Source: a virus
Lineage: Duplodnaviria > Heunggongvirae > Uroviricota > Caudoviricetes
Virus record (IMG/VR): IMGVR_UViG_2645727510_000007
Strand: one strand, 5' to 3'
DNA: 35,552 bases
The position numbers and the translations under genes were made by a program. The notes below the pieces were generated by a model, which saw only the letters and a program-made list of their open reading frames with translations, was not told the origin of the DNA and made no database searches. Below, piece by piece: positions 5,014-35,439 of the stretch (position 1 is the first letter of the stretch; each line of letters begins with the position of its first letter).

Positions 5014-5068
5014 AAAAAAATCCCGTAAAAAAAGCCGCACAGGCGGCCTTTAGTGATGAAGGGTAAGG

Positions 5069-5401: not shown

Positions 5402-5410
5402 AAACATCCC

Positions 5411-6730: not shown

Positions 6731-10411
<3,681 letters not shown>

Positions 10412-10437
<26 letters not shown>

Positions 10438-10957
10438 TCAGCAACCCCGGTATCAGTTCATCCAGCGCGGCTGCTTTGTTCATGGCTTTGATGATATCCC
10501 GTTTCAGGAAATCAACATGTCGGTTTTCCAGTTCCGGAAAACGCCGCTGCACCGACAGGGGGATCCCGTCGAGAATACTGGCAATTTCACCTGCGATCCG
10601 CGACAGCACGAAAGTACAGAATGCGGTTTCCACCACTTCAGCGGAGTCTCTGGCATTTTTCAGCTCCTGTGCGTCGGCCTGCGCACGCGTAAGTCGATGG
10701 CGTTCGTACTCAATAGTCCCTGGCTGGAGATCTGTCTCGCTGGCCTGCCGCAGTTCTTCAACTTCCCGGCGCAGCTTTTCGTTCTCAATTTCAGCATCCC
10801 TTTCGGCATACCATTTTATGGCGGCGGCAGAGTCATAAAGCACTTCATTACCCTTGCCACCACCCCGCAGAACGGGCATTCCCTGCTCCTGCCAGTTCTG
10901 AATGGTACGGATACTCGCGCCGAAAATGTCAGCCAGCTGCTTTTTGTTGACTTCCAT
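10412..10957 (-). CDS. Nu1: Terminase small subunit Nu1
   Basis: 181-aa ORF (MEVNKKQLADIFGASIRTIQNWQEQGMP...) with winged-HTH N-terminus; lambda gpNu1 length; next to cos. Confidence 0.95.
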
Positions 10958-11540: not shown

Positions 11541-11900
11541 ACATCCCGGTTTCTTCCACCATCGCACCGGAAAAGCGACTATGAGGGTAACCCTGCGTCT
11601 GTCAGCACAGTAAAACCCGGTGTGCATCGTTTTTGATTATTCCCGCACACTCACGCAGAAGGAATTCCCCGTCGGGCTACGGTCATGGTTAATGCGGGAA
11701 TACGGCGACGATACAGCGCAGCTAAAAGGGTAATGGACAGATAGAGCGGTTTATTTCATTCCACAGGATTCTGAGTGCCCCCCCTCCTCCAATAGGCTGA
11801 GCATCCACCTATATAGTTTTAATTTTCATCAATCCATTTAACTATCGTTTAATTGTTGTCACATAGGATTCTGCCGTTTTTAACAATGCAGGATAATAAG

Positions 11901-12194
11901 ATGAAAAAAATGTTGTTTTCTGCCGCTCTGGCAATGCTTATTACAGGATGTGCTCAACAGACGTTTACTGTTGGAAACAAACCGACAGCAGTAACACCAA
12001 AGGAAACCATCACCCATCATTTCTTCGTTTCGGGAATTGGACAGGAGAAAACTGTTGATGCAGCCAAAATTTGTGGCGGCGCAGAAAATGTTGTTAAAAC
12101 AGAAACCCAGCAAACATTCGTAAATGGATTTCTCGGTTTTATTACTTTAGGCATTTATACTCCGCTGGAAGCGCGTGTGTATTGCTCACAATAA
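11901..12194 (+). CDS. bor: Bor lipoprotein (serum-resistance outer-membrane lipoprotein)
   Basis: MKKMLFSAALAMLITGCAQQTFTV... has a lipobox (LITGC) and is near-identical in length (97 aa) and sequence to lambda Bor; SD aggataa upstream; opposite to the lysis genes as in lambda. Confidence 0.9.
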   Translation: MKKMLFSAALAMLITGCAQQTFTVGNKPTAVTPKETITHHFFVSGIGQEKTVDAAKICGGAENVVKTETQQTFVNGFLGFITLGIYTPLEARVYCSQ

Positions 12195-13396: not shown

Positions 13397-13879
13397 AACC
13401 CCACCTCGCAGACAAAGCGGGTGTAAATTGAGGGAATACAACGTATCGCAAAAAAGCAGAAACGTAACAGACTCGGAGTCAGTGAATAACTCAGGTATTG
13501 GGTTATCAGCTAATATCGAGACTCAAAAAATGGAAAAACCCGCTCGACGGCGGGTTTAAGCTGTGTGACGAAGTAACCACTCTTAACAGCATAACCAATT
13601 TTTTACGTACGTAAACCACAAAATGATATTTGCGAGAATGCTACCGAGTATTGAAAACACCACTACAAATACATAAGCAAATCTCAACAAATAACCAACA
13701 AATAATTTCCAGTGTTATTTTTAGCCGATTTAAATTGAACCTTCAAATTACAGAGCACTTATAAATAACAGCCGTTAATATAAATTGGCTAATAGATTTA
13801 TTTTTATTCAGCCAAGATCCATGAATAGGATTCGATAGAAAAAAGTTCAGATAAAAATAGAGATCTACTTCACAAATCA

Positions 13880-13970
13880 AACGAGAAACCAAAACTTACA
13901 TCTTGAAATAATCACATTGATTAGATGAATATTTATCGCGCAGTGACATCATTTTTTAATAATAGTTCAA
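13880..13970 (+). promoter_or_regulatory. Putative porin promoter with OmpR-box-like sequence (ttacatcttgaaataatcac)
   Basis: AT-rich region upstream of the porin gene contains a sequence resembling OmpR-binding motifs of ompC/ompF-type promoters. By resemblance only. Confidence 0.35.
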
Positions 13971-13985
13971 AAAAAAGGGCTCACG

Positions 13986-15068
13986 ATGAAAAAATTAACA
14001 GTGGCAATTTCTGCTGTAGCTGCATCAGTACTGATGGCGATGTCTGCTCAGGCAGCTGAAATTTATAATAAAGACAGTAACAAGCTGGATCTATATGGGA
14101 AAGTTAATGCCAAGCACTACTTCTCCTCTAATGATGCAGATGATGGTGATACTACTTATGCCCGTCTTGGCTTCAAAGGTGAAACCCAAATCAACGATCA
14201 ACTGACTGGTTTCGGTCAGTGGGAATATGAATTCAAAGGCAACCGCGCTGAATCTCAAGGCTCCTCCAAAGACAAAACCCGTCTTGCATTTGCAGGCCTG
14301 AAATTCGGGGACTACGGCTCAATCGATTACGGCCGTAACTACGGTGTAGCATATGACATCGGTGCGTGGACTGACGTTCTGCCAGAATTCGGTGGCGATA
14401 CCTGGACCCAAACAGATGTGTTCATGACTGGTCGCACCACTGGTGTTGCAACTTATCGTAACAACGACTTCTTTGGTCTGGTTGATGGTCTGAACTTTGC
14501 TGCTCAGTATCAGGGTAAAAATGACCGCACTGACGTAACTGAAGCTAATGGTGATGGTTTCGGTTTCTCCACTACTTATGAGTATGAAGGATTCGGTGTA
14601 GGTGCAACCTATGCTAAATCTGACCGCACTAATAATCAGGTTATCTACGGTAACAACAGCCTGAATGCATCTGGTCAAAATGCTGAAGTATGGGCAGCTG
14701 GTCTGAAATATGATGCGAACAACATCTATCTGGCTACCACCTATTCTGAAACCCAGAACATGACTGTTTTTGGTAATAACCATATTGCCAACAAAGCACA
14801 AAACTTCGAAGTAGTTGCACAATATCAGTTCGACTTCGGTCTGCGTCCGTCCGTTGCTTACCTGCAATCTAAAGGAAAAGACTTGGGTGCGTGGGGTGAT
14901 CAGGACCTGGTTGAATATATTGATGTAGGTGCAACCTATTACTTCAACAAAAATATGTCCACTTTTGTTGATTACAAAATCAACCTGATTGATAAGAGCG
15001 ATTTCACGAAAGCATCTGGCGTTGCTACCGATGATATCGTTGCTGTAGGTATGGTTTACCAGTTCTAA
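13986..15068 (+). CDS. Outer-membrane general porin, OmpC/OmpF/PhoE family (NmpC/Lc-like prophage porin)
   Basis: 360-aa ORF with signal peptide ([23 protein letters not shown]), classic porin motifs ([17 protein letters not shown]..., C-terminal ...VAVGMVYQF). Sits between Q and the lysis genes like nmpC in DLP12 and lc in PA-2. Confidence 0.9.
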
Positions 15069-15256: not shown

Positions 15257-15655
15257 TTAATTAGAGTTATTAACAACGATATCCATCTCTAACCGGATAT
15301 CTAATGCCATTAACATCCCTTCAATTATGCCCTCAGCCTTCTGTAACCTTTTCCCGATATAACCATCAGAGCAGCAATGCTTACCTGCCAGTGACATGAA
15401 TGTCATACCGACTACATAATAATCTACTAATAAATCGTGCAAATCGCTGTTGTTCTTTTTCAGACGGGCCATGCACCCGCAAATAATCATCGCGTCATCG
15501 TCACAACATTGCGGGCGAGATTTTACTTTTGAAGTAATTAATCCCTTAAAACCGGCGGCAATGGACGACCAGGTCACATCTTCATGATTATTAGCCGCCC
15601 ACGCTCCCCAACGCTCAAGAACCATCTGAATATCACGCATCAACTTACTCCACAA
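15257..15655 (-). CDS. Q: Late-gene antiterminator Q (QuuD-like family)
   Basis: 132-aa ORF with Cys-rich putative zinc motif ([12 protein letters not shown] ... HCCSDG); immediately after rusA/ylcG and before the lysis region; resembles DLP12 QuuD. Confidence 0.75.
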
Positions 15656-15725: not shown

Positions 15726-15866
15726 TCATACTCCTGCTCCTGTCAGGGTTTTGGCGTAATTCTTCAGTATTCGGTAATCGGTCAAAACAGAACCGGGGAA
15801 ACGATATAAGCGCAGATGCCCCCAGCGGTGGCGAAGAAGTTCTGCCATATAAAACTCAAACATCAT
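15726..15866 (-). CDS. Small protein YlcG-like (46 aa)
   Basis: ATG overlaps the rusA stop (ATGA); encodes [46 protein letters not shown]; same position as ylcG in DLP12. Below the ORF-track length cutoff; read manually. Confidence 0.5.
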
Positions 15867-16225
15867 TCATTCCCCATTTCGGTGATGGTCAGTTCCAGCC
15901 TCCCACCTTTGGTAACAGGCATCTTCACAACGCGGTAATCAACGACCTGAGCATCATCCAGCCAGAAACCTGCTTTGGTGAGTGCGTCAAAAGCGGCTTT
16001 TTGCAGATTATCCAGGTCACGGCGACGGCGATCCGGCATGTGGCACTCAATGCGGATTTTCACAGGCATAGCCAGGCCGATATCCAGCATTGCGTTTTTA
16101 ATGATTCGGGCGACGTTATCGCGGTATGCCTGCCCCTCTGCACTGACGTGCGTGCGCCCGCGATTATGGCGGTAATAGCGATTATTGCTCGGAGGCCAGG
16201 GTAATGTGATACTGTAGGTATTCAC
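15863..16225 (-). CDS. rusA: Holliday junction resolvase RusA
   Basis: 120-aa ORF ([36 protein letters not shown]...) matching the RusA family in length and motifs. Confidence 0.9.
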
Positions 16226-16512: not shown

Positions 16513-16675
16513 GATTCCTCCTTGCTGCCAGTCGCAACCATTTTTTATCAACCAGGCTAGCGGTATATCCGAGCAGTGTTGGTATTTCGGATGGCTTCAG
16601 CTCAGGCTTACGCTTACGACGATTTGATACTCTGTAGATGTGTCCGTTCATGACACGAATAAGCGGTGTAGCCAT
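16505..16675 (-). CDS. ninE: NinE-like protein
   Basis: 56-aa ORF ([56 protein letters not shown]) overlapping the YbcN stop and YbcO start; C-terminal W-L-R motif resembles lambda NinE. Below ORF-track cutoff; read manually. Confidence 0.5.
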   Translation of the reverse strand: MATPLIRVMNGHIYRVSNRRKRKPELKPSEIPTLLGYTASLVDKKWLRLAARRNHG

Positions 16676-17130
16676 TACGCCTCCTGCTTGTCGCGGAGCA
16701 GCTGGAACTCGCAGCTCTGCGGAATAGTCAGGTGGCAGCCAATATTCACCGCCCAGGCTTCAACCTTACACAGGAAGACATACATCTCTCCGGTATCAAG
16801 ATCGGAGGTATGGCGTAACGACTGGATAGTGGTGATATCACCGGTTACGACATCAACCAGGTCTTTGGTTTCATAACCGAGATATGTGTGTTTGAGAGCA
16901 TCTTTTACCCAAGCTGGAGTGGCGAACGTTTTACCCCTGCTGATGAGGTATTCACTGATTTCGCTGTACCACATGTGGCTGAGTGCATTCTGGGAAAGAC
17001 TGCGTCTCTCGCGCCACGGTTTAAGCACCATGCGAAAGCATTTTCCGTCCTCCAGATAAGGCTGGATCTGCTGACCGATAGCGGTGAAGTTACCGCGATG
17101 CAATTTGATACCGTCTTGTGGGAGGTTCAC
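16675..17130 (-). CDS. NinB/Orf-family recombination mediator (YbcN-like)
   Basis: 151-aa ORF with the R-x-RSL-x-QN motif shared with lambda NinB (Orf); first gene of the nin block. Confidence 0.7.
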
Positions 17131-17555
17131 GCTTCACCTCCGCAGAGGTCAAACGCTAGATGCAAAGAATTGCAGGTGCATTTCTGCATCTGTGAAGGGA
17201 GAAGAGAGTTTGGATTGTATGTGCGCATAAACGTCCCCGTTTAGCGCAACCCCACCACCGGGTGTTCAGGCCGACAGTAACTATATTATTCCCTACTGAT
17301 TTTTGAAAATCAAAGGTCTTTATACGTCACACGAGAGCAAATATTTCCGAAGAAAAAACCTTTCGCCTTGAAAGGATAAAGAGTTCATTTCATAAATTGA
17401 AATATTAAACAAGAATATTGCAAAAAATGAAATTATTTACTAGAGAGTCTATCTAACTGATAATTATGAAGATTGTAAGCGGTGGCAATCACCCGCATAC
17501 ACATTGAACAGGATTTAATAAAAACGTCTTAAATTGTCCGTAAGGAATAGCACGA

Positions 17556-19058
17556 ATGACTCAAACTCCACTATTACTTGCAATCATATTTTTATTGGTT
17601 GTTCTTGTTCTTTATATAGCTGCAATCAAACGCATCAAAAAAATACAATTAGAATTAAGTGATAGCAATCAAAAAAATGAAGAATACAAATCTCGCTTTG
17701 CAGATTATTTTAATGTAGAAGAAGAATGTAAGAAGCTTATTGAGAAAACAGAGCAAGAATGCTCCATAATAAAAGAAGAATCCCAAAAAGTAAAAGAAAA
17801 TGCCAATAATGAACTAACAAACACCATTGAAAAAATGGATGGTATCAATAAACAAATCCAAGAGCTAAGAAGAACTTATAAAGAGAAGAAAGAAATATAT
17901 GATAAACTAGTAAGGCAAATTTCTATTTATTCAGAAGATGTTGAGCTAGCCGAGCTAGGATTTTACGAACCTCATTTTAATTTTGAAGATTCAGAGCAAT
18001 TTAAAAACAAAATAAAATCCATCAGGGATGAACAGAAATTAATGCTGCGGGATAAAACCCACTCTGGCGCAGTATATTGTACAACCCAATGGACTGTTGA
18101 AGGCTCTCGAGCAGAGGGTAAAAAAATGACAGACAGAAATATCAGGTTAACTACTAGAGCATTTAATAATGAATGTGATGCTGCAATTAGCAATTGCACG
18201 TGGAAAAATATCACTAAAATGGAAGAACGCATCACAAAGGCATTTGAGGCCATAAATAAACTAAACGAGCAAAATCACATATATATAAACACTAAATACC
18301 TCAATAAAAAACTTGAGGAATTGTGGCTTACCCATGAATATCGTGAGCAAAAACAGAAAGAAAAAGAAGAACAGGCAGAAATAAGGGCACAAATGAGAGA
18401 GGAGGAGCGTGCACAACGAGAAATAGAAAAGGCCATGCAAGACGCAGAGGCAGAAGAGCGCCGTTATAAAAAAGCAATTGAAGCTGCAAGAAAGGAAATG
18501 GAAAAAGTTACTGGTGACATGAAGCAGCGCCTCGAAAATCGCATTGCCGAACTAGAACAGAGTTTGTCGCAGGCTGAATCAAAGCATCAAAGAGCATTAT
18601 CCATGGCACAACAAACCAAACAAGGTCATGTTTATATTATTTCGAACATAGGTTCTTTTGGGGAGAATGTTTATAAAATAGGCATGACACGACGTCTTGA
18701 TCCGCAAGACCGTGTAAATGAGCTCGGTGATGCATCTGTTCCATTTATTTTTGATGTGCATGCTATGATTTATTCGGAGGACGCTCCATCATTAGAAAAA
18801 AAACTACATGATGTCTTCGATAAAAAGAGAGTCAATCTTGTAAATCGTAGAAAAGAGTTTTTCTATGTTACTCTGGATGAGATCAAAGAAGCTCTTAAAA
18901 AACACTCTGATTCAGAAATTGAATTTATTGAGACAGCAGTCGCAAAAGACTTTAATGAGTCATTGGCTATTCGTAATCATGAAAATAAAAAAAGTGACAA
19001 CAACAACTCATCAATTATACCTGAGCGAAAAACCCCAGAGTTTGCAGATGCAATTTAA
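17556..19058 (+). CDS. Membrane-anchored coiled-coil protein with C-terminal GIY-YIG-like (T5orf172-type) domain; DUF4041-like middle region; candidate defence or exclusion moron
   Basis: 500-aa ORF, strongly AT-rich and Lys/Glu/Asn-rich, on the strand opposite the flanking early-right operon. N-terminal TM helix (LLLAIIFLLVVLVLYIAAI), long heptad-rich K/E segments, C-terminal GHVYIISN...VYKIGMT...RVNELG motif. Domain names are from memory, not searched. Confidence 0.8.
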   Translation: MTQTPLLLAIIFLLVVLVLYIAAIKRIKKIQLELSDSNQKNEEYKSRFADYFNVEEECKKLIEKTEQECSIIKEESQKVKENANNELTNTIEKMDGINKQIQELRRTYKEKKEIYDKLVRQISIYSEDVELAELGFYEPHFNFEDSEQFKNKIKSIRDEQKLMLRDKTHSGAVYCTTQWTVEGSRAEGKKMTDRNIRLTTRAFNNECDAAISNCTWKNITKMEERITKAFEAINKLNEQNHIYINTKYLNKKLEELWLTHEYREQKQKEKEEQAEIRAQMREEERAQREIEKAMQDAEAEERRYKKAIEAARKEMEKVTGDMKQRLENRIAELEQSLSQAESKHQRALSMAQQTKQGHVYIISNIGSFGENVYKIGMTRRLDPQDRVNELGDASVPFIFDVHAMIYSEDAPSLEKKLHDVFDKKRVNLVNRRKEFFYVTLDEIKEALKKHSDSEIEFIETAVAKDFNESLAIRNHENKKSDNNNSSIIPERKTPEFADAI

Positions 19059-19306
19059 TTAATTTGTAGTGGCAATAAAGCAGGCATCGTTGAGAATATT
19101 TTGTCAGCGATGCTTACTTCTCTAACAAAAACGGTGATTACCAACGAACTAACGGACATCAGGTAATCATAAGACAAATGGAACGACTCTCCGGTGATTA
19201 GATCCCTGCAATAACAGTAATTTTCTACTAACTGAAAAATCTTTAACTGCCGCTCCTATTTCTAAGCTGACTGCTAGATTACATGGTGTGTTACCGATGA
19301 AAACCG

Positions 19307-19609
19307 TCACAGCAAGTTTAAGTTCATATCTCCATACACTGCCAACACTCGTTTCATCGCGGCACTCTGGCGACACTCCTTGAAAATCAGATTCGTGCTC
19401 ACCTTTCCTTCCCGTTCTTCCCTGGTAGCGAAGCGGTAATACACCGTTCGCCAGACCTTACCATCAATGACTAAGATTCCTGCCCGTGCCATTTTAACCG
19501 CAGCCTGATTTATACTGGTTACTGTTGCGCCTGTTACCGCAGCAACGTCCTGCGCACAGAAGCTCTTATGCGTCCCCAGGTAATGAATAATTGCCTCTTT
19601 GCCCGTCAT
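19307..19609 (-). CDS. ren: Ren protein (Rex-exclusion resistance) with divergent C-terminus
   Basis: MTGKEAIIHYLGTHKSFCAQDVAAVTGATVTSINQAAVKMARAG... is near-identical to lambda Ren for about 90 residues, then diverges (…AVYGDMNLNLL), marking a recombination junction near 19310-19330. Confidence 0.85.
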   Translation of the reverse strand: MTGKEAIIHYLGTHKSFCAQDVAAVTGATVTSINQAAVKMARAGILVIDGKVWRTVYYRFATREEREGKVSTNLIFKECRQSAAMKRVLAVYGDMNLNLL

Positions 19610-20307
19610 ACACTTGCTCCTTTCAGTCCGAACTTAGCTTTGATTTCTGCGATCTTCGCCAAAGCCTGTGCACGATTTAGAGGTCTACCGCCCATGACAG
19701 GAAGTTGTTTTACTGGTTCAGGTATCGCCTCACCACGGTTAATTCGCGCGGTCATACAGGTCAGCTCATCGGCAGCCTTACGCCGTAATTCCGCGTCAGT
19801 CAGCGCATTGGCCCGCATGTTCTGGTACAGGTTGGTAACCAGCCAGTAGTGCGCGTTTGATTTCCACGGATAAGACTCTGCATCCGGATACAGTCCACGC
19901 TTCCGGCAATACTCGTAAACCATATCAACCAGCTCGCTGGCGTTTGGCAGTCCGGCAATAACGGATGCTTCTTCACGGCACCAGGCAACAAACTGCCCGG
20001 GTGATGGCAGGAATGGTCGATTCTGCCGACGGGCTACGCGCATTCCAGCGTTAACCTGTTCCATCGTGGTGATCCCATTTTCCCGAAAAGCCAGAACCCA
20101 CTGGCGGCGGATTTCGTTCAGTTCATTCTGGTCACGGTTAGCCAGGCTCGCCGGGAAAGTTGCCAGTAACTGGCTGAACACACCGTTGATGATCTGCGCT
20201 ACCTGCTGTACCTGTGGCTTTTCGTCGTACTGTTCCGGCATGTTGTTGGCGATCCGACGCATCTGCTCACGGTCAAAGTTAACCATCTGTGCGGCGATGT
20301 TTTTCAT
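19606..20307 (-). CDS. P: Replication protein P (DnaB helicase loader)
   Basis: 233-aa ORF essentially identical in length and sequence to lambda P. Confidence 0.95.
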   Translation of the reverse strand: MKNIAAQMVNFDREQMRRIANNMPEQYDEKPQVQQVAQIINGVFSQLLATFPASLANRDQNELNEIRRQWVLAFRENGITTMEQVNAGMRVARRQNRPFLPSPGQFVAWCREEASVIAGLPNASELVDMVYEYCRKRGLYPDAESYPWKSNAHYWLVTNLYQNMRANALTDAELRRKAADELTCMTARINRGEAIPEPVKQLPVMGGRPLNRAQALAKIAEIKAKFGLKGASV

Positions 20308-21233
20308 AAATCCACCCCGTAAATCCAGTCAGTGTTTGTCAGGTCGAGTTTTGGTTTGCTGGCTATCATGCCTGCCTGTTGCTTGTTACGGTTGATTTCG
20401 AGCTGGGTCCACTTGTCGCGGAGTTTGGCCGGACTCAGCACGTTACCGGACCAGAAGTTGTCCTGGCATGCCCAGCGGAACAGTACACACATGTCGCGGT
20501 GGTTACGTCCGTCACGTTCACGCATCAGGCGGATATCGTTAGCCCACCCTGCAAAATTCGGTTTTCTGGCTGATGGCGCAATGGTCTTCACCATGTCAAA
20601 CATCCACTCTGCGGCGGTCAGGTCTTCTGCTGTCCCCCACTTGCTGCCGCTCTGAATTGCAGCATCCGGTTTCACCACAGGAAGATCGTTTTCTGGCTGG
20701 TCAGAGGATTCGACAGAATTCTCGGACGAAAAAGGTTTTATATTGTCTTTTGTTAGTTTGTCTTTTGTATTTACCTGATTCGGGTAAACGTCTTTACCTG
20801 ATTTGGGTAAAATTTTCTTACCTGATTCAGGTAAATTTACCTCTTTCAGGTAAACTTTATTTTTCTTACCTGATTCGGGTAATGTTAACCATTCACTGAT
20901 CACATTATTAATGCCGGTATTCCGCCCGCTCTGAATAAAAATCCCACGCTTTACCAGAACACTTTTTGCAGCAGAACACTTGTGCGGCAATATCCCGGTC
21001 AACTCGGAAAGTTGCTCGTTGCTCACCCAATCCAGTTTTTTATTAAAGCCATATGTTTTACGCATGACAGCCAGGAAGACCAGAAGCTGGTGCTGTGTTA
21101 ATCCGGCCAGCATTACAGCTTCCAGCAACTCATTTGCAATGCGCGTATAACCATCATCGAGATCTGCCACGCGCGGCTCCTTTTGTGCCACATCCGGCAC
21201 TGGAAAATTGAATATCTCAGCAGTGTTTGCCAT
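20304..21233 (-). CDS. O: Replication initiator O
   Basis: ORF 20304..21314; SD-preceded ATG at 21233 gives MANTAEIFNFPVPDVAQKEPRVADLDDGY..., lambda O-like; iteron-encoded repeats (LPESGKK) inside; C-terminus ...NTDWIYGVDL. Confidence 0.9.
   Translation of the reverse strand: MANTAEIFNFPVPDVAQKEPRVADLDDGYTRIANELLEAVMLAGLTQHQLLVFLAVMRKTYGFNKKLDWVSNEQLSELTGILPHKCSAAKSVLVKRGIFIQSGRNTGINNVISEWLTLPESGKKNKVYLKEVNLPESGKKILPKSGKDVYPNQVNTKDKLTKDNIKPFSSENSVESSDQPENDLPVVKPDAAIQSGSKWGTAEDLTAAEWMFDMVKTIAPSARKPNFAGWANDIRLMRERDGRNHRDMCVLFRWACQDNFWSGNVLSPAKLRDKWTQLEINRNKQQAGMIASKPKLDLTNTDWIYGVDL
20771..20883. repeat. ori: Origin of replication iterons inside O (five copies of about 18-bp ttacctgattcgggtaaa-like inverted-repeat units)
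   Basis: Five direct repeats at about 23-bp spacing, each itself palindromic (TTACC...GGTAA), as in lambda ori. Confidence 0.8.
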
Positions 21234-21310
21234 AATTCCTCCCGCAATGAGTGTTGCACCTGAAAGTCGGTTCTGTTCGCGCAGACCGGCTTTCGCCATT
21301 TCTGAACCTG

Positions 21311-21850
21311 TCATATTGCCCCCAGCATGGTGGTGACCATCGCCATCAGTGGACCAGCCAGATCCGGGTCCACACGAAACATCGACACAATGCCTTCACT
21401 CATCTCCTTCAGTTTCTGGTGGCGTGGTGCGTTGAGAATGACAGCCTGTTTTGCCTCACTGAGTTCCTTTTCCATTTCAGCCAGCCGAGCCATGTAGCTA
21501 TCCTGCTCAACCAGGTGGCCGCGATATTCCAGCGGTAGTACCGCCAGAATTGCCGGGGTCAGTTCACGCACGTTATTTCGGTATTTTTCAGAATCGAATT
21601 TGTTATCGAGGAAGCGGAACAGCTTCTGGCGTGCACGGCTGACATCATCAGGGAAATCGATGGTGCCGCCGCCCTGCTCCCGATACTCATTCACAATGAG
21701 TGTGGCAACGACATCCTGATTATCTTCAGCCGACCAGGCGCGGACGGCATCACGGATTTTTTCGTGGCCTGGCACCTGTTTTGTTTGAGAACGATTTATC
21801 ACCGCAGTCGGGCTAAATCCGCTAGTCTGTTGGTATGTAAGTTGTTGCAT
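21311..21850 (-). CDS. cII-position regulatory protein, YdaT-like (putative)
   Basis: 179-aa ORF with strong SD (aaggag) between cro-like and O; contains NEYREQGGG motif recalled from YdaT-family proteins. Family assignment is by memory only. Confidence 0.45.
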   Translation of the reverse strand: MQQLTYQQTSGFSPTAVINRSQTKQVPGHEKIRDAVRAWSAEDNQDVVATLIVNEYREQGGGTIDFPDDVSRARQKLFRFLDNKFDSEKYRNNVRELTPAILAVLPLEYRGHLVEQDSYMARLAEMEKELSEAKQAVILNAPRHQKLKEMSEGIVSMFRVDPDLAGPLMAMVTTMLGAI

Positions 21851-21919: not shown

Positions 21920-22150
21920 TTAAGCTGCGTTCTTTTCGGTATGTGGAAACAACTTCGGAAGATCCGGGCGAATCTGGTATGCCTTCACTATTCCACCAGT
22001 AGCCGTAACAATGCTGCCGACATGTTCAGGGGATACCTTTGCTTTGTTGTGAAGCCACTTATAGACGGCCTGCTGTGAAACTTCGCAGGCAGCGCCCAGT
22101 TTCTTTTGTGAACCAACGATATTGATCGCTGTTTTGATAGCTGGGTTCAT
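21920..22150 (-). CDS. cro: Cro-like HTH repressor (YdaS/DUF1019-type)
   Basis: 76-aa ORF divergent from cI across an operator region; HTH-like segment (QKKLGAACEVSQQAVYKWL). Confidence 0.75.
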   Translation of the reverse strand: MNPAIKTAINIVGSQKKLGAACEVSQQAVYKWLHNKAKVSPEHVGSIVTATGGIVKAYQIRPDLPKLFPHTEKNAA

Positions 22151-22254
22151 AACAACCTCCGTGGTTAATTTGAATCAAGATTAAAACTATGGTTGTTTTT
22201 AGCCAACAACCATTTTCGTTTGATGAAATAAAACCTTGGTTGTACATTTGGACT
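22151..22254. promoter_or_regulatory. Divergent immunity promoters and right operator (pR/pRM, OR)
   Basis: Intergenic region between cro-like and cI with a 9-bp perfect inverted repeat atggttgtt/aacaaccat (22189..22213) and two more AACAACC-like half-sites (22205-22225, 22236-22250). Confidence 0.65.
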
Positions 22255-22944
22255 ATGAAAACAACACTCTCAGAAAGACTTAAAGAAGCCAGATTAGCGC
22301 GAGGCCTTACACAAAAGGCGCTTGGGGATTTGGTCGGGGTTAGCCAAGCTGCTATTCAGAAAATCGAAACAGGGAAAGCTAACCAAACAACTAAAATCGT
22401 GGAGATCGCGAACGCTTTGGGTGTGCGCGCAGAATGGTTATCTTCTGGCGTTGGAAATATGTCAGACAGTACAGTGCAACCAATACAATCAACTGTCAGC
22501 CATTCCAAATACTTTAAGATTGACGTTCTTGATATAGAAGTGAGTGCCGGGCCGGGAGTCATCAACCGTGAGTTTGTAGAAGTTCTACGCTCGGTTGAGT
22601 ACTCGTTTGACGATGCTCGTCACATGTTCGATGGTAGGAAGGCAGAAAATATCCGCATCATTAACGTGCGTGGTGACAGCATGTCAGGAACGATCGAACC
22701 AGGTGATCTGCTGTTCGTTGATATCACGGTTAAATCTTTCGACGGTGATGGCATCTATGCGTTTCTGTACGACGACACCGCCCATGTAAAGCGCCTGCAA
22801 ATGATGAAGGATAAGCTGCTGGTTATCTCTGATAACAAGAGCTACTCACCGTGGGACCCGATCGAGAAAGACGAGATGAACCGGGTGTTCATCTTCGGTA
22901 AGGTTATTGGGAGCATGCCCCAGACGTACAGGAAACATGGATAA
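22255..22944 (+). CDS. cI: CI-type repressor (HTH_XRE N-terminal domain, LexA-like S24 self-cleaving C-terminal domain)
   Basis: From the Met at 22255: MKTTLSERLKEARLARGLTQKALGDLVGVSQAAIQKIETGK... (HTH); C-terminal domain has the catalytic Ser context (VRGDSMSGTIEPGDLLFVD) and Lys (HVKRL). Confidence 0.9.
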   Translation: MKTTLSERLKEARLARGLTQKALGDLVGVSQAAIQKIETGKANQTTKIVEIANALGVRAEWLSSGVGNMSDSTVQPIQSTVSHSKYFKIDVLDIEVSAGPGVINREFVEVLRSVEYSFDDARHMFDGRKAENIRIINVRGDSMSGTIEPGDLLFVDITVKSFDGDGIYAFLYDDTAHVKRLQMMKDKLLVISDNKSYSPWDPIEKDEMNRVFIFGKVIGSMPQTYRKHG

Positions 22945-23010: not shown

Positions 23011-23874
23011 ATGGATTGTGACGCTTTACAGGATATAAAAATCTCTCTTAGGTATGACGGAAAAGATGCTTTAAATCATGAAATAGATTTGAACTGCCTA
23101 GGAGAATCCCTAAAGGGTTTTTCTAAAGTTCTCTCAACAGCAGCTTCTTTCTCTGTTACACAAAAATATAGTAAATACATTAATTATCAGGAAGTTAAGG
23201 TTTACGCACGCGAAGCAAAAGCTAACTGCTTTACTCTTGAAGCAGTTCTTAACTTCGCCACTCAGAACCAGTTGTTCTCGGGGATCGCCGCAACTATACT
23301 TGGCGCAATACTACAATATATTTTTGCGAGAAATTCTAACAAGAAAGATGAAATGAAAGCTTTGCAGCAGTCACTTGAAAAGGCCATAGAGGCACTAGGA
23401 AACAAGGATGCTGGAACCATTGATAAGTTGATCTCTTTGATTGACCGAATGGCTGTAGAGCTTCGCCCCTCTGTAAGGCAGGCAGTATCACCTATTGGTA
23501 ATACTTGCGATCAGATAAGTGTTGCAACAAATGTTGACGGCTGCCTTCTAAAAGTTAACGAGAGAGATAAAGCTGAAATTGATAGGCTTGATGATGATGA
23601 AGTTCTCGGTCTTCGTGAGTATCGTGCTTTTCTTACAGAATTTGATGCACAAAATATGACAGCTAAAATAATTTTAGATGGTGATGACTCAAAAAAGAGA
23701 ATCACTGCTGAAATTAGCGATCCAGCTGCAGGAAAGAAGAATAACCCGTATATTAGAGCTCTTAGTGCATATATATCAACCAAAGGTGATCCATCTGCAG
23801 TATTCACTATAACCGCAAAGGCTACTGTTAAAAAAGGCCAGATAAACAGGTTATTTATTGTAGATGCGAAATGA
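23011..23874 (+). CDS. Uncharacterised protein at the rexAB position, co-transcribed with cI; candidate exclusion or abortive-infection factor
   Basis: 287-aa ORF 66 nt after cI with no terminator between, followed by a strong terminator; AT-rich versus flanking cI; one hydrophobic segment ([19 protein letters not shown]); no resemblance to RexA/RexB that I can recognise. Confidence 0.75.
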
Positions 23875-27682: not shown

Positions 27683-28426
27683 ATGATTAACAATATTGCA
27701 AATCAGTCTTCGTTTCCGGCTGCAACAATTGACAGCCAGATGCTGTTGAAAATGGTTAATGAGGCGCGGAGACTGTGAGGCGAAAAAGAAGTACGCAACA
27801 ACGACTTCATTGCACGCATCAAAGATGAGCTTGAGGGGGAGGGTTACGAAATTTTCGTAACCCCCATGGATAAGAAAAAAGGCGGAGCGGATCAGGTGGT
27901 TATAGTGATGACCTACAAGCAAGCCCTGCGCGTCGCCGCACGTGAGTCGAAAGCCGTCCGTCGTTCGCTGGTCGACAAACTTGAATCAATGCAACAGCAG
28001 TTGCAACAAAAAACGACCACGAAGAAATCACCGGATGGCCTTGAAGAATTCCGTAAGGCACGCGCATTGAAAATGACCGTCGACACAATGAAAGACCTCT
28101 TCGACTTCCTCCCTCACCTCGCACCGGAAGCTAAACAGGTCGTTGCCGCCAGCCTGATTAATCCCGTCGTCGGCTTTAGTGCAATCCCTCTTCCGGTCAT
28201 TGATGAACATCACTACTCTGCGTCGGAGGTTGGCACCATGCTTGGCATTTCAGCCAACAAGGTAGGGCGCATTGCCAACACCTACATGCTCAAAACAGAA
28301 AAGTACGGGAAGTGGTTCATCGACAAATCGGCGCACAGTGACAAGCAGGTCGAGACATTTCGCTACAACGAGGCGGGAGTGCACAAGATCGAGGAACTCA
28401 TCGAAGGAGAACGAAAGGCTGCATGA
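27683..28426 (+). pseudogene. Antirepressor-like gene split by an in-frame TGA at 27776..27778 (C-terminal 186-aa ORF 27866..28426 intact)
   Basis: ATG 27683 opens a frame encoding MINNIANQSSFPAATIDSQMLLKMVNEARRL, stop TGA, then the same frame continues GEKEVRNNDFIARIKDELEGEGYEIFVTPMDKKKGG... to 28426. Confidence 0.5.
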
Positions 28427-28505
28427 TTTTGACAAGATAGTTTTCCCCAAATCTGGGGGAAAAGACCGAATGGCGCGGCTTACAGCAAGATAAAGACCAC
28501 ATGAT

Positions 28506-28604
28506 TTGACAAATCCGCATTAACGGGGCTATATTCCGCTTCATGGTGCTGAACACACCTTGCAAAGCGGAAACCGCACCCGTCAGTCATGCGGCTTTTT
28601 TATG
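28506..28604 (+). ncRNA. Candidate small RNA or transcription attenuator: promoter, about 60-nt structured transcript, intrinsic terminator
   Basis: TTGACA (28506..28511), 18-nt spacer, TATATT (28530..28535); downstream alternative hairpins gcgg-aaa-ccgc (28567..28577) versus ccgca...tgcgg (28574..28594) followed by cttttttat. Confidence 0.35.
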
Positions 28605-28748
28605 TCCATTTCTCAGATATGGTCGGGTAGCGCGTATACCGAAAAACAACCGAAAGGTTAAGGATACGGGCCGACTTTGCACGGTGTTCAAGTACCTGAC
28701 CGCCCTGCTGAACACAGGGCTATCTGAACAAATGCAAAGGACATAAAA

Positions 28749-29372
28749 ATGACCAGTCAACTCATCCCCGTATTCAACGGCACTATCGCCAACGAAACAG
28801 CCCTACTCTGCAATGCCCGCGATCTGCATGCTTTTTTAGGCGTGAAAAAGGTGTTTGCGGCATGGATTACAAATCGCATTTCAGAATACGAATTCATTGA
28901 AAATCAAGACTATATTTTGCTTTCCAATTTGGGAAAGCAAACATCTGGTAGAGGCGGTCACAACCGCAAGGATTACCACCTCACCCTCGACACAGCCAAA
29001 GAGCTGGCAATGGTCGAGCGCAACGAAAAAGGCCGCCAGATACGCCGATACTTCATCGAGTGCGAAAAGAAACTTCGCAGCATGCAACCAGCGCAGCAAT
29101 TCACAGACGAGGAAATCATCCTCCTCTGCTACATGCAGGTACAGATGGAGAAAGCACAGGACATCAGCAAACGCCTGTATCCGATATTGAAGGAACTGAA
29201 CTCATCATACTCGAGCAAGCTGTATGACATCGCGTTTGAGACTTTCTACACGGTGACGAAAAACAGAGACGCACTGCTCAGGGAGGCGACACGACTTGAC
29301 CAGACAAGCGCCCTTTTCGAACGGGCAAGACCAATGCTGAAAAGCCTTCGGGCGAGACAATTCGAATTTTAA
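28749..29372 (+). CDS. AntA/AntB-type phage antirepressor
   Basis: 207-aa ORF with the AntA-like N-terminal motif (NARDLHAFLGVKKVFAAWITNRISEYEFIENQDYIL...GGHNRKDYHLTLDTAKELAMVERNEKGRQIRRYFIECEK). Confidence 0.8.
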   Translation: MTSQLIPVFNGTIANETALLCNARDLHAFLGVKKVFAAWITNRISEYEFIENQDYILLSNLGKQTSGRGGHNRKDYHLTLDTAKELAMVERNEKGRQIRRYFIECEKKLRSMQPAQQFTDEEIILLCYMQVQMEKAQDISKRLYPILKELNSSYSSKLYDIAFETFYTVTKNRDALLREATRLDQTSALFERARPMLKSLRARQFEF

Positions 29373-29456: not shown

Positions 29457-29675
29457 ATGTACTTGACACTTCAGGAGTGGAACGCACGCCAGCGACGCCC
29501 AAGAAGCCCTGAAACAGTTCGTCGATGGGTACGCGAGTGCAGGATATTCCCTCCTCCGGTTAAGGATGGAAGAGAGTATCTGTTCCACGAATCAGCGGTA
29601 AAGGTTGACTTAAATCGACCAGTAACAGGTAGCCTTTTGAAGAGGATCAGAAATGGGAAGAAGGCGAAGTCATGA
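29457..29675 (+). CDS. xis: Excisionase Xis
   Basis: 72-aa ORF MYLTLQEWNARQRRPRSPETVRRWVRECRIFPPPVKDGREYLFHESAVKVDLNRP... near-identical to lambda Xis; overlaps int as in lambda. Confidence 0.95.
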   Translation: MYLTLQEWNARQRRPRSPETVRRWVRECRIFPPPVKDGREYLFHESAVKVDLNRPVTGSLLKRIRNGKKAKS

Positions 29676-30726
29676 GCGCCGGGATTTACCCCCTAACCTT
29701 TATATAAGAAACAATGGATATTACTGCTACAGGGACCCAAGGACGGGTAAAGAGTTCGGATTAGGCAGAGACAGGAGGATAGCAATCACTGAAGCAATAC
29801 AGGCCAACATTGAGTTACTCTCAGACAGCGGACGGGAGTCACTGATAGACAGAATTAAAGGCGCTGACACAATCACTCTTCATACGTGGCTTGACCGATA
29901 TGAAACAATCCTCACCGAAAGGGGTATCAGACCGAAAACTCTACTCGACTACGCCAGCAAAATCAGGGCAATCCGAAGAAAATTGCCGGACAAACCGCTC
30001 ACTGACATATCAACGAAAGAGGTGGCTGCAATGCTAAACACCTACGTCGCAGAAGGTAAAGCAGCGTCCGCAAGAGTAATCAGGTCAACCCTTGTTGACG
30101 TTTTTCGTGAGGCAATAGCCGAGGGGCATGTGGCAACGAATCCGGTAACAGCAACCCGCGCAGCAAAGTCAGAAGTAAGGCGCTCAAGGCTGACAGCTAA
30201 TGAGTATGTCGCGATTTACCATGCAGCCGAACATCTCCCAATCTGGCTGAGGCTGGCAATGGATTTGGCTGTCGTTACAGGGCAGAGAGTAGGCGATTTA
30301 TGCAGAATGAAATGGTCAGACATAAACGACAACCATCTTCACATTGAGCAGGGTAAAACAGGGGCTAAGCTCGCCATTCCGCTGACGCTAACGATTGACG
30401 CGCTCAATATCTCATTGGCTGATACACTACAGAAATGCAGGGAGGCCAGCGGCAGTGAAACAATAATTGCATCAACGCATCACGAACCGCTTTCCCCGAA
30501 AACAGTATCTAAGTATTTTACAAAGGCGAGAAATGCATCTGGACTCTCATTTGATGGAGACCCGCCAACATTCCATGAACTGCGTAGCCTGTCGGCGAGG
30601 CTATACCGGAATCAGATTGGCGATAAGTTTGCTCAACGTCTTCTCGGGCATAAATCAGATTCAATGGCGGCGCGGTATAGGGACAGCCGAGGGAGAGAAT
30701 GGGACAAAATTGAAATCAATAAATGA
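29653..30726 (+). CDS. int: Tyrosine integrase Int (lambda family)
   Basis: 357-aa ORF; N-terminal arm-binding domain identical to lambda Int (MGRRRSHERRDLPPNLYIRNNGYYCYRDPRTGKEFGLGRDRRIAITEAIQANIEL), catalytic region conserved (...HELRSLSARLY...LLGHKSD...) with scattered substitutions. Confidence 0.95.
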   Translation: MGRRRSHERRDLPPNLYIRNNGYYCYRDPRTGKEFGLGRDRRIAITEAIQANIELLSDSGRESLIDRIKGADTITLHTWLDRYETILTERGIRPKTLLDYASKIRAIRRKLPDKPLTDISTKEVAAMLNTYVAEGKAASARVIRSTLVDVFREAIAEGHVATNPVTATRAAKSEVRRSRLTANEYVAIYHAAEHLPIWLRLAMDLAVVTGQRVGDLCRMKWSDINDNHLHIEQGKTGAKLAIPLTLTIDALNISLADTLQKCREASGSETIIASTHHEPLSPKTVSKYFTKARNASGLSFDGDPPTFHELRSLSARLYRNQIGDKFAQRLLGHKSDSMAARYRDSRGREWDKIEINK

Positions 30727-30840: not shown

Positions 30841-30998
30841 CAGCATCCGGCTGAAATCTGCGGCTTACCTCCTTTCGCCCTGTATGTAGTCTATCGCTAA
30901 CGCGTAGATAAAATAGTTTCCTGTGTTATTACTGGATGCGTGCTCGCAAATGTGCCCGCCATTCAGACGATTCCCGATAGTGTTTCATAATTCCTCCA

Positions 30999-31019
30999 TT
31001 TTTCTCCCTTATTGGCTGG
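30999..31019 (+). promoter_or_regulatory. BaeR-box-like response-regulator site in the mdtA promoter
   Basis: tttttctcccttattggctgg matches the recalled BaeR consensus (TTTTTCTCCnnnATTGGC), about 50 bp upstream of mdtA. Confidence 0.6.
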
Positions 31020-31069
31020 CTACACTAGTATCATTCCGCGAAACGTTTCAGGAAGAGAAACTCTTAACG

Positions 31070-32317
31070 ATGAAAGGCAGTTATAAATCCCGTTGGGTAA
31101 TCGTAATCGTGGTGGTTATCGCCGCCATCGCCGCATTCTGGTTCTGGCAAGGCCGCAATGACTCCCAGAGTGCAGCCCCAGGGGCGACGAAACAAGCGCA
31201 GCAATCGCCAGCGGGTGGTCGCCGTGGTATGCGTTCCGGCCCATTAGCCCCGGTTCAGGCGGCGACCGCCGTAGAACAGGCAGTTCCGCGTTACCTCACC
31301 GGGCTTGGCACCATTACCGCCGCTAATACTGTTACGGTGCGCAGCCGCGTGGACGGTCAACTGATGGCGTTACATTTCCAGGAAGGCCAGCAGGTCAAAG
31401 CAGGCGATTTACTGGCAGAAATTGACCCCAGCCAGTTCAAAGTTGCATTAGCACAAGCCCAGGGCCAACTGGCAAAAGATAAAGCCACGCTTGCTAACGC
31501 CCGCCGTGATCTGGCGCGTTATCAGCAACTGGCAAAAACCAATCTCGTCTCCCGTCAGGAGCTGGATGCCCAACAGGCGCTGGTCAGTGAAACCGAAGGC
31601 ACCATTAAGGCTGATGAAGCAAGCGTCGCCAGCGCGCAGCTGCAACTCGACTGGAGCCGCATCACCGCACCAGTCGATGGTCGCGTTGGTCTCAAGCAGG
31701 TTGATGTTGGTAACCAAATCTCCAGTGGTGATACCACCGGAATTGTGGTGATCACCCAGACGCATCCTATCGATTTAGTCTTTACCCTGCCGGAAAGCGA
31801 TATCGCTACTGTAGTGCAGGCGCAAAAAGCCGGAAAACCGCTGGTGGTAGAAGCCTGGGATCGCACCAATTCGAAGAAATTAAGTGAAGGCACGCTGTTA
31901 AGCCTCGATAACCAAATCGATGCCACAACCGGTACGATTAAAGTGAAAGCACGCTTTAATAATCAGGATGATGCGCTGTTTCCCAATCAGTTTGTTAACG
32001 CGCGCATGTTAGTCGACACCGAACAAAACGCCGTAGTGATCCCAACAGCCGCCCTGCAAATGGGCAATGAAGGCCATTTTGTCTGGGTGCTGAATAGCGA
32101 AAACAAGGTCAGCAAACATCTGGTGACGCCGGGCATTCAGGACAGTCAGAAAGTGGTGATCCGTGCAGGTATTTCTGCGGGCGATCGCGTGGTGACAGAC
32201 GGCATTGATCGCCTGACCGAAGGGGCGAAAGTGGAAGTGGTGGAAGCCCAGAGCGCCACCACTCCGGAAGAGAAAGCCACCAGCCGCGAATACGCGAAAA
32301 AAGGAGCACGCTCCTGA
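31070..32317 (+). CDS. mdtA: Multidrug efflux RND membrane-fusion protein MdtA
   Basis: From the Met at 31070: [31 protein letters not shown]... 415 aa, membrane-fusion family; followed immediately by mdtB. Confidence 0.95.
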
Positions 32318-35300
32318 TGCAGGTGTTACCCCCGAGCAGCACAGGCGGCCCGTCGCGCCTTTTTATTATGCGTCCTGTCGCCACCACGCTGCTGATGGTG
32401 GCGATCTTACTCGCCGGGATTATCGGTTATCGCGCCCTGCCCGTTTCGGCGCTGCCGGAAGTGGACTATCCGACCATTCAGGTGGTCACGCTCTACCCAG
32501 GTGCCAGCCCGGATGTCATGACCTCTGCCGTTACCGCGCCGCTAGAACGCCAGTTCGGGCAGATGTCTGGCCTGAAACAGATGTCGTCGCAAAGTTCCGG
32601 CGGTGCGTCAGTTATCACTTTGCAGTTCCAGCTAACATTACCGCTCGATGTCGCCGAGCAGGAAGTGCAGGCCGCGATTAACGCTGCGACCAACTTGTTG
32701 CCGAGCGATCTGCCTAACCCGCCGGTTTACAGCAAAGTGAACCCGGCAGATCCGCCGATCATGACGCTCGCCGTCACCTCAACCGCCATGCCGATGACGC
32801 AAGTGGAAGATATGGTGGAAACCCGCGTCGCGCAGAAAATCTCGCAGATTTCCGGTGTCGGACTGGTGACGCTTTCCGGCGGTCAGCGTCCGGCTGTTCG
32901 CGTCAAACTTAACGCTCAGGCGATTGCCGCCCTCGGCCTGACCAGCGAAACCGTGCGCACCGCCATTACCGGCGCTAACGTTAACTCGGCAAAAGGTAGC
33001 CTCGACGGCCCTTCCCGTGCGGTTACGCTTTCCGCTAACGACCAGATGCAATCCGCCGAAGAGTATCGCCAGCTAATCATCGCCTACCAGAACGGCGCGC
33101 CGATTCGTCTTGGCGATGTCGCAACCGTAGAGCAAGGTGCAGAAAACAGCTGGCTTGGCGCATGGGCGAACAAAGAACAGGCCATTGTGATGAATGTTCA
33201 GCGCCAGCCCGGTGCTAACATTATCTCCACCGCCGACAGCATCCGGCAGATGCTGCCACAGCTCACCGAGAGTCTGCCGAAATCGGTGAAGGTAACAGTG
33301 CTTTCCGATCGCACCACCAATATCCGCGCATCGGTCAACGATACCCAGTTTGAATTGATGATGGCTATCGCGCTGGTAGTCATGATTATCTACCTGTTTT
33401 TGCGCAATATTCCGGCGACCATCATTCCCGGCTTCGCAGTGCCGCTGTCGTTAATCGGCACCTTCGCGGTCATGGTGTTTCTCGATTTTTCAATCAATAA
33501 CCTGACGCTGATGGCGTTAACTATCGCCACCGGGTTCGTGGTCGATGACGCCATCGTGGTGATCGAAAATATTTCCCGCTATATCGAAAAAGGCGAAAAA
33601 CCGTTGGCGGCGGCGCTCAAGGGCGCAGGTGAAATCGGCTTTACCATTATCTCGCTGACCTTCTCGCTGATTGCGGTGTTGATCCCACTGCTGTTTATGG
33701 GCGATATCGTCGGGCGACTGTTCCGCGAATTTGCTATTACCCTGGCGGTAGCGATTTTGATCTCAGCGGTGGTGTCGCTGACCCTGACACCGATGATGTG
33801 CGCGCGGATGCTCAGCCAGGAGTCGTTGCGTAAACAGAACCGCTTCTCCCGTGCCTCGGAAAAAATGTTCGACAGGATAATCGCCGCCTATGGTCGTGGA
33901 CTGGCGAAAGTGCTGAATCATCCGTGGCTGACCTTAAGCGTGGCACTCAGCACGCTGCTGCTTAGCGTGCTGCTGTGGGTGTTCATTCCGAAAGGTTTCT
34001 TCCCGGTACAGGACAACGGCATTATTCAGGGCACTTTGCAGGCACCGCAATCCAGCTCCTTTGCCAATATGGCCCAGCGGCAACGCCAGGTCGCGGACGT
34101 GATTTTGCAGGATCCGGCAGTGCAAAGTCTGACCTCATTTGTTGGCGTTGATGGCACTAACCCGTCGCTGAACAGTGCGCGTTTGCAGATCAACCTCAAA
34201 CCGCTGGATGAACGTGATGATCGGGTGCAAAAAGTCATCGCCCGTCTGCAAACGGCGGTGGATAAAGTGCCGGGCGTCGATCTCTTCCTGCAACCAACGC
34301 AGGACCTGACCATCGATACTCAGGTCAGCCGCACCCAGTACCAGTTTACCTTGCAGGCCACCTCACTGGATGCGCTCAGTACCTGGGTGCCAGAGTTGAT
34401 GGAAAAACTCCAGCAACTGCCACAGCTTTCTGATGTCTCCAGCGACTGGCAGGACAAAGGGCTGGTGGCGTATGTCAATGTTGATCGCGACAGCGCCAGC
34501 CGTCTGGGGATCAGCATGGCGGATGTCGATAACGCCCTGTACAACGCGTTTGGTCAGCGGCTGATTTCCACTATTTATACTCAGGCTAACCAGTATCGCG
34601 TGGTGCTGGAACACAACACCGAAAATACCCCAGGCCTCGCGGCGCTGGATACCATTCGCCTGACCAGCAGCGACGGTGGCGTGGTGCCGCTAAGCTCAAT
34701 TGCCAAAATTGAGCAGCGTTTTGCGCCGCTCTCCATCAACCATCTGGATCAGTTCCCGGTAACGACCATCTCCTTTAACGTGCCGGATAACTATTCGCTG
34801 GGTGATGCGGTGCAGGCGATTATGGACACCGAGAAGACGCTGAATCTGCCGGTGGATATCACCACGCAATTCCAGGGCAGCACCCTCGCCTTCCAGTCGG
34901 CGCTGGGCAGCACTGTCTGGCTGATTGTCGCGGCGGTGGTGGCGATGTATATCGTGCTCGGCATTCTGTACGAGAGCTTTATTCACCCGATCACCATTCT
35001 CTCGACGCTACCCACCGCAGGGGTCGGCGCACTGCTGGCATTAATGATTGCCGGAAGTGAGCTGGATGTGATTGCGATTATCGGCATTATTTTGCTGATC
35101 GGTATCGTGAAGAAGAACGCCATCATGATGATCGACTTCGCGCTGGCTGCTGAGCGCGAGCAAGGCATGTCGCCGCGCGATGCCATCTACCAGGCTTGTC
35201 TGTTGCGTTTTCGTCCGATCCTGATGACCACCCTGGCGGCTCTGCTTGGCGCGCTGCCGCTGATGTTGAGTACCGGGGTCGGCGCGGAACTGCGTCGTCC

Positions 35301-35439
35301 GTTAGGTATCGGCATGGTCGGCGGTCTGATTGTCAGCCAGGTGCTGACGCTGTTCACCACGCCGGTGATTTATCTGCTGTTCGACCGCCTGGCATTGTGG
35401 ACCAAAAGTCGCTTTGCTCGCCATGAAGAGGAGGCGTAA
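32317..35439 (+). CDS. mdtB: Multidrug efflux RND permease MdtB
   Basis: 1040-aa ORF with RND transporter architecture (12 TM segments, two large periplasmic loops); start overlaps the mdtA stop. Confidence 0.95.

Follow-up and report, generated by a model that had tools for sequence, protein, structure and literature searches.

Vassallo et al. described the single-gene system PD-λ-1, encoded by a 1,503-nt coding sequence of ECOR26 (protein RCP76574.1), in 2022 (Nat Microbiol, PMC9519451); its present name, SNIPE, was given by Saxton et al. in 2026 (Nature, PMC13190303). The protein as published has 500 aa, and one of the constructs carried an insertion at "a.a. 500" (PMC13190303). SNIPE is a GIY-YIG nuclease anchored in the inner membrane and equipped with a DNA-binding DUF4041 domain; PhoA-LacZα fusions placed its N-terminus in the periplasm and the remainder in the cytoplasm. 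Without the transmembrane segment the protein moves to the nucleoid, cuts host DNA and becomes toxic, for which E414 is required and DUF4041 is helpful. The wild-type protein is non-toxic, does not block plasmid transformation, and affects neither adsorption nor the induction of a resident λ prophage, while the number of established λ genomes falls about 30-fold. Injected 32P-labelled λ DNA is converted into a smear in an E414-dependent manner, and the amount injected is unchanged. SNIPE associates with ManYZ as well as with the tape measure protein of the phage. Defence requires the DUF4041 domain, a DNA-binding module that also contacts the tape measure protein; gain-of-function mutations were located in this domain and escape mutations in the tape measure protein of Bas14, which crosslinks to SNIPE residue 250. 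Only siphoviruses are affected, and BASEL phages are blocked even in the absence of ManYZ (all PMC13190303). The importance of SNIPE, as already published, is that self and non-self are told apart by location, since only DNA crossing the membrane via the phage injection apparatus is cut.

Other GIY-YIG nucleases, such as SLX1/HIGLE, I-TevI and the N-terminal domain of UvrC, combine this domain with RING, NUMOD or UvrC domains rather than with a transmembrane segment and DUF4041, and are directed by DNA structure or sequence, whereas SNIPE is targeted by its subcellular position. Inner-membrane proteins that halt a superinfecting genome at injection are also encoded by phage and prophage morons, including HK97 gp15 and T4 Imm and Sp. 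The outcome in the case of HK97 gp15 is governed by the tape measure protein together with a sugar PTS permease. These proteins block entry without nuclease activity, whereas SNIPE admits the DNA and then cuts it. Zorya, proposed to degrade incoming DNA (discussed in PMC13190303), and Kiwa resemble SNIPE in acting at the inner membrane and responding to phage genome injection; however, they are multi-gene systems of unrelated proteins (MotAB-like ZorAB and KwaAB), and SNIPE is one polypeptide with its own GIY-YIG nuclease.

The window, i.e., the whole 35,552-nt stretch of caudoviral DNA that was analysed (IMG/VR record IMGVR_UViG_2645727510_000007), almost certainly carries SNIPE/PD-λ-1, with its published mechanism, as a cargo of about 2.0–2.1 kb with its own promoter in the ren/nin slot of a lambdoid prophage (Table 1). 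The gene is an intact ORF that begins with ATG and encodes 500 aa followed by a stop codon; an AAGGA Shine-Dalgarno sequence (17542–17546) lies 9 nt from the start codon. The GC content of the coding sequence is 0.35, and similarly low values were found in 17249–17555 (0.345) and 19059–19306 (0.387), versus 0.486–0.506 in the backbone on either side. The strand is opposite to that of ren, P, O and the nin/Q genes. The initial annotation had described an AT-rich, oppositely oriented single-gene insertion; the ORF listing, the GC contrast and the gene context bear this out and show a moron whose composition is foreign to the lambdoid prophage that carries it.

Table 1. Features of the SNIPE locus and the surrounding prophage genes (window coordinates)
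Feature	Position	Strand	Basis or remark
Q	15257..15655	-	
rusA	15863..16225	-	
ybcN/orf151	16675..17130	-	
orf33 (phage-82 type), backbone, outside the cargo	17127..17228	-	annotated in phage 82 and in an E. coli locus of identical sequence
Left junction zone	17249..17320	.	high identity to phage 82/Turner stops at 17248, patchy homology after
Candidate sigma-70 promoter of SNIPE, TTTACT-17-GATAAT	17436..17464	+	consensus match only, 9/12
SNIPE (PD-λ-1) CDS	17556..19058	+	ORF, PADLOC PD-Lambda-1 model, 497/500 aa match to PhiR26_1 'PD-lambda-1'
N-terminal transmembrane anchor, residues ~5–24, PLLLAIIFLLVVLVLYIAAI	17568..17627	+	hydropathy, AF2 helix
Charged N-terminal helix, residues ~25–132, variable 'adapter' region	17628..17951	+	AF2, composition, conservation
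DUF4041 core, residues 198–252, inside conserved globular region ~133–258	18147..18311	+	Pfam PF13250
Long charged linker helix, residues ~247–359	18294..18632	+	AF2, composition
GIY-YIG (T5orf172/MUG113) nuclease domain, residues 357–449	18624..18902	+	catalytic Glu414 codon 18795–18797
Right cassette flank, ending at the junction within the ren 3' end	19059..19329	.	stop of λ identity; same flank in PhiR26_1
ren, 100 aa, final 7 codons from inserted DNA	19307..19609	-	PHROG 142 Ren-like exclusion protein (1e-41), λ ren alignment
P	19606..20307	-	
O	20304..21314	-	
YdaT-domain protein, cII slot	21311..21850	-	
Cro-like gene	21920..22150	-	

The window protein matched both PD-Lambda-1 models of PADLOC, PDLC03976 (E = 9.4e-198, residues 1–485, a model of 491 positions) and PDLC03977 (E = 2e-194, end to end), as well as PHROG 1847; against ZorA it obtained only a chance-level PADLOC score (E = 0.055). 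It shares 497 of 500 amino acids (99.4%) and 1493 of 1503 nucleotides with the protein labelled 'PD-lambda-1' in the GenBank record of phage PhiR26_1 (XSB42081.1). Relative to the PhiR26_1/ECOR26 allele there are 10 nucleotide differences and three substitutions, Q77L, L447V and N483S. The first lies in the variable N-terminal helix, the second where the nuclease domain ends and the third in the tail, and none touches a known key residue. Twenty-five of the published SNIPE primers were mapped onto the window, where they cover 550 positions. Besides the designed mutations (for example, E414A, GAA to GCT, 18796–18797), there were three natural differences in these 550 bases, and at all three the PhiR26_1 allele is exactly the primer sequence; therefore, PhiR26_1 carries the experimentally characterised allele. 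All nine residues named in the functional study (E223, N250, L253, W257, E264, K305, I308, T319 and E414; PMC13190303) are kept in the window protein. Judged by these comparisons, the gene is an allele of the published SNIPE (PD-λ-1), a near-identical copy of something already known. The initial annotation had proposed an anti-phage gene matching no named defence system: the defence role agrees with the PADLOC result and with the literature (PMC9519451, PMC13190303), and the name is now supplied. The appropriate label for the gene is SNIPE/PD-λ-1; RefSeq uses 'DUF4041 domain-containing protein' and, more recently, 'SNIPE associated domain-containing protein'. What the window adds is another natural allele, with three substitutions, and its prophage context and junctions.

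The domain order likewise corresponds to that of the characterised protein. The Kyte-Doolittle profile (19-residue window) peaks at the segment starting at residue 6 (mean, 3.37), residues ~5–24 are helical in the AF2 model, and the topology-mapped SNIPE has exactly this segment, so that computationally the protein has the SNIPE transmembrane anchor. Pfam searches returned DUF4041 (residues 198–252, E = 1.2e-19, 70.4 bits versus a cut-off of 27), T5orf172 (357–449, E = 1.2e-16) and MUG113 (373–449, E = 1e-18), each above its own gathering score. The same three families head the published HHpred table for PD-λ-1, at 197–252, 357–448 and 373–449, respectively (PMC9519451). The anchor, DUF4041 middle and T5orf172/GIY-YIG C-terminus read earlier from the sequence were thus recovered by hydropathy and Pfam. 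The coiled coil of roughly 300 residues proposed along with them was only partly recovered: the charged helices are present, but they form two stretches separated by the DUF4041 region rather than a continuous one. In the AF2 model the first helix spans residues 5–132 (pLDDT ~70–87), with a K/E/R/D/Q fraction of 0.47 in its charged part, and the second spans residues 247–359 (pLDDT ~64–82), with a charged-residue fraction of 0.60.

The C-terminal domain is of the GIY-YIG α/β fold and contains the catalytic Glu414. Its motif series consists of V359-Y360-I361, Y373-K374-I375-G376, R386, E414 and N427/N430, presumably equivalent to the Y6/Y17/R27/E75/N90 series of I-TevI. Conservation was computed relative to the window sequence across 121 divergent homologues, each with less than 90% identity. 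At least 90% conservation was found for G357, V359, Y360, Y373–G376, R379, R380, R386, E414, N427 and N430, which include all motif residues except I361. Identity to the window residue was 0.84 in positions 351–400 and about 0.45–0.55 in the DUF4041 region, where the conserved positions of the globular part extend from G135 to L258, and it did not exceed 0.13 in residues 1–100, a region with many gaps. This gradient agrees with Fig. 5 of PMC13190303, in which the nuclease is conserved and the N-terminal adapter variable. The full-length single-sequence AF2 model was confident for the helices only, and the globular domains had a pLDDT of ~30, making it unusable for a fold search. Searches of PDB sequences with residues 346–500 (phmmer) gave only chance matches (nanobodies, polycystin), as did a profile built from 22 nuclease-domain sequences, so no solved relative was found by sequence. 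NCBIfam has no specific model for the SNIPE protein and yielded just sub-threshold SMC/Rad50 coiled-coil noise.

The prophage genes around SNIPE are all on the minus strand and make up a lambdoid early-right operon; λ-type head and tail genes occupy positions 564–10957. The nin genes were initially thought to have been displaced by the single inserted gene, but a phage-82/DLP12-type nin set (orf33, ybcN, ninE, ybcO, rusA, ylcG and Q) sits immediately to its left. On the right, identity to λ ren extends to position 19330 (...AVYG), after which DMNLNLL* replaces VKR*; the divergence of the Ren C-terminus exactly at the junction was recognised correctly. On the left, the first 118 bp (17131–17248) are backbone containing orf33; their GC content is ~0.49, and they match phage 82, Turner and numerous λ-like phages at 94%–100% identity. 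The patches of homology that follow share with phage 82 and Turner an inverted repeat (TGATTTT-N2-AAAATCA, 17297–17312, 7-bp arms). In the phage 82 record the equivalent repeat is described as a 'possible regulator-binding site', with a putative leftward -35/-10 upstream of orf33, and leftward promoter-like hexamers are present in the window at 17313..17280 (-). Since the first 118 bp are backbone and patchy backbone homology continues to ~17320, the cargo-specific upstream DNA measures ~235–305 bp, less than the ~425 bp of AT-rich sequence originally assigned to the insertion. The two junctions delimit a cargo of ~2.0–2.1 kb (~17249/17321 to 19329).

The content of the slot between ren and orf33/ybcN varies among genomes; the flank itself is shared by roughly 2,750 E. 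coli genomes. PhiR26_1 resembles the window in having a 500-aa SNIPE with the same domain order and matching flanks on both sides, located beside ren in a lambdoid prophage, but three genes (a Bro-N/P22AR antirepressor-like gene and two hypothetical genes, one of them small) intervene there between SNIPE and orf151/ybcN. In strain P276M, Bro-N/P22AR antirepressor-like and hypothetical genes lie between orf33 and SNIPE; in the window, orf33 directly adjoins SNIPE. Strain FDAARGOS_1373 has a co-oriented gene for a 515-aa HD-domain protein between SNIPE and ren, and strain PS1Thumoskin9 has an IS3 element in this place. In strain DX6, IS2 splits the matched 2,176-bp interval. The slot of phage Turner is filled by a serine recombinase together with small, unrelated genes. 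PADLOC gave no matches for the HD-domain protein, the Bro-N/P22AR protein or the Turner serine recombinase. A protein with the domains DUF7946 and DUF7947, for which a literature search found no papers, is encoded at 23011..23874, downstream of cI in the slot of rexAB. It is possible, though we regard it as rather doubtful, that phage-82/DLP12-type lambdoid prophages have a recurrent hotspot for cargo at their ren-orf33/ninB junction, that SNIPE moves as a ~2-kb cassette that brings its own promoter, runs antisense to the pR transcript and is in some cases accompanied by co-cargo such as the HD-domain gene of FDAARGOS_1373, and that the DUF7946-DUF7947 protein is a second exclusion gene expressed in the lysogen.

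Phage homing endonucleases include T5orf172/GIY-YIG domains, and an AT-rich insertion with sharp junctions could be produced by a selfish mobile endonuclease that settled beside ren and benefits neither host nor prophage. This explanation is very improbable. The window protein has a transmembrane anchor, DUF4041 and long helices instead, and no DNA-binding module of homing endonucleases (NUMOD, IENR1 or HTH) was detected in it by Pfam at E ≤ 1. A nuclease held at the membrane is incompatible with cleavage of a cognate homing site on the chromosome or in a phage, the same cassette occurs in slots with different neighbours, and a defence phenotype has been published.

A candidate promoter of SNIPE was recognised by its match to the sigma-70 consensus. 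The region 17000–19700 contained 11 promoter-like sites versus 6.8 ± 2.7 in shuffled sequences, a number not clearly above chance, and the assignment is therefore tentative. The -35 part of the candidate is kept even in the divergent upstream region of P276M. Cloned flanks of 62–282 bp sufficed for expression of PD-λ-1 from its 'native promoter' (supplement of PMC9519451), and the candidate falls within this flank length. A tR2-like terminator hairpin at 17375..17359 (-) was rejected, as shuffled sequences fold equally well (z = -0.32).

The action of SNIPE in this prophage could be reconstructed from localisation, cleavage, partner and phenotype data, all of which were published for a 99.4%-identical protein. 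SNIPE would be produced constitutively in the lysogen, and its single N-terminal helix would hold it in the inner membrane, leaving the rest of the protein in the cytoplasm, so that the chromosome stays out of reach and is not cut. Before infection it would be associated with ManYZ, required by λ for genome entry, and the tape measure protein would join during infection. [quoted passage not shown] The cell would live on, in a direct form of defence, and its own prophage could still be induced normally. The effect is expected to be specific to siphoviruses, strong for λ and weak to moderate for many others.

The survival of the cell distinguishes this mechanism from abortive infection, which the initial annotation had considered as an option. 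In an abortive-infection or toxin module, the tethered nuclease would be released or activated on infection and kill the host before phage release. Because SNIPE deprived of the transmembrane segment is toxic at the nucleoid (PMC13190303), it could kill the cell in principle. However, infected cells carrying the near-identical protein do not lyse and grow to confluence, and their cultures survive at high MOI, unlike those with the abortive-infection control PD-λ-3 (PMC13190303). The E414-dependent degradation of injected labelled DNA also speaks against host killing, and Vassallo et al. classed PD-λ-1 as direct immunity (PMC9519451). Abortive infection is thus largely refuted, and we give it a minimal probability. 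With the substitutions Q77L, L447V and N483S, the window allele would probably act as the characterised SNIPE does. Given the λ-like prophage and the published action of SNIPE that spares prophage induction, we infer that the gene serves the prophage as a superinfection exclusion factor against other siphoviruses, leaving its own induction unharmed. Lysogens of this prophage are expected to be resistant to λ-like and some other siphoviruses, which is relevant to phage typing or to therapy with siphoviruses.

Identical or near-identical DNA was found in 131 of 5,426 complete E. coli genomes, in every case on the chromosome, and 108 of these copies showed an identity of 99% or more, pointing to recent spread, purifying selection or both. 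An intact reading frame could still be silent or inactive in this particular prophage, and disrupted copies do exist elsewhere, in DX6 through the IS2 insertion and in P276M as a truncated coding sequence. Yet such decay is very improbable here, if marginally less so than the other alternatives: the frame is full-length, every known functional residue is kept, the functional ECOR26 allele has almost the same 307 bp upstream, and most of the E. coli copies are the highly similar ones just mentioned. Beyond E. coli, quick scans revealed relatives of SNIPE in at least 394 species-representative genomes of many phyla and on 316 viral contigs.

The gene for the DUF7946-DUF7947 protein lies directly 3' of the cI-like repressor gene in the same orientation, the position that rexAB occupies in λ, downstream of the repressor. 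Its product matches PHROG 5147, a family without assigned function, and a PADLOC search returned a weak match to PDC-S42 (E = 1.5e-4); a literature search found neither DUF7946 nor DUF7947 in any paper. The gene is a candidate for a second exclusion or defence gene expressed in the lysogen, besides the anti-phage nuclease gene SNIPE. In E. coli FDAARGOS_1373, SNIPE and ren are separated by a gene for an HD-domain protein with the same orientation as SNIPE. This protein had no match in a PADLOC search, and its gene may be uncharacterised co-cargo or a defence gene sharing the SNIPE slot.

Table. Features of the window and of the FDAARGOS_1373 locus
Feature	Location	Strand	Domain match or remark
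Bor/Iss serum-resistance lipoprotein	11853..12194	+	Pfam Lambda_Bor, 5.7e-30
OmpC/NmpC-like porin, 360 aa	13986..15068	+	
Inverted repeat TGATTTT-N2-AAAATCA	17297-17312		Shares sequence with promoter-like hexamers that point leftward (- strand, 17313..17280)
Terminator-like hairpin CCTTTCAAGGCGAAAGG, then T-run	17359..17375	-	
YdaT_toxin-domain protein, 179 aa	21311..21850	-	YdaT_toxin, 2.5e-29
cI-like S24/HTH repressor	22189..22944	+	
DUF7946-DUF7947 protein, 287 aa	23011..23874	+	Pfam DUF7946, 3.8e-55; DUF7947, 1.4e-18
λ-type integrase	29653..30726		
Host mdtA-like efflux gene	30923..32317		
Host mdtB-like efflux gene	32317..35439		
HD-domain protein, 515 aa	NZ_CP069945.1, 5863..7410	+	Pfam HD, 1e-06

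Flanked by Q on one side and the lysis genes on the other, the porin gene runs in the opposite direction to the late genes and is a further classic lambdoid moron. The DNA ahead of it (about 13600-14050) is AT-rich, with a GC content of 0.30-0.32, and related records annotate its counterpart as ompC/OmpD. The Bor/Iss gene adjoins the lysis cassette. The YdaT_toxin-domain protein is encoded in the cII position, instead of the λ-type CII.

The inverted repeat upstream of SNIPE (within 17280..17320) is conserved in the lambdoid phages 82, Turner and PhiR26_1, and the phage 82 record labels the equivalent repeat, upstream of orf33, as a possible regulator-binding site. Together with the hexamers, the repeat could be a regulated internal promoter driving the nin-Q genes. 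The nearby hairpin has a position analogous to that of λ tR2, but its role as a terminator is doubtful since its predicted stability was no better than that of shuffled sequence (z = -0.32).

Two antirepressor-like genes (PHROG 1726; AntA/P22AR; 27866..29372) are followed by the integrase gene and then by the host mdtA-like and mdtB-like genes, the latter order placing the right end of the prophage near 30.8 kb, beside mdtABC. No tRNA genes were found in the window. An otherwise identical SNIPE-bearing prophage in NZ_CP180607 occupies the argU/DLP12 site instead of mdtABC.
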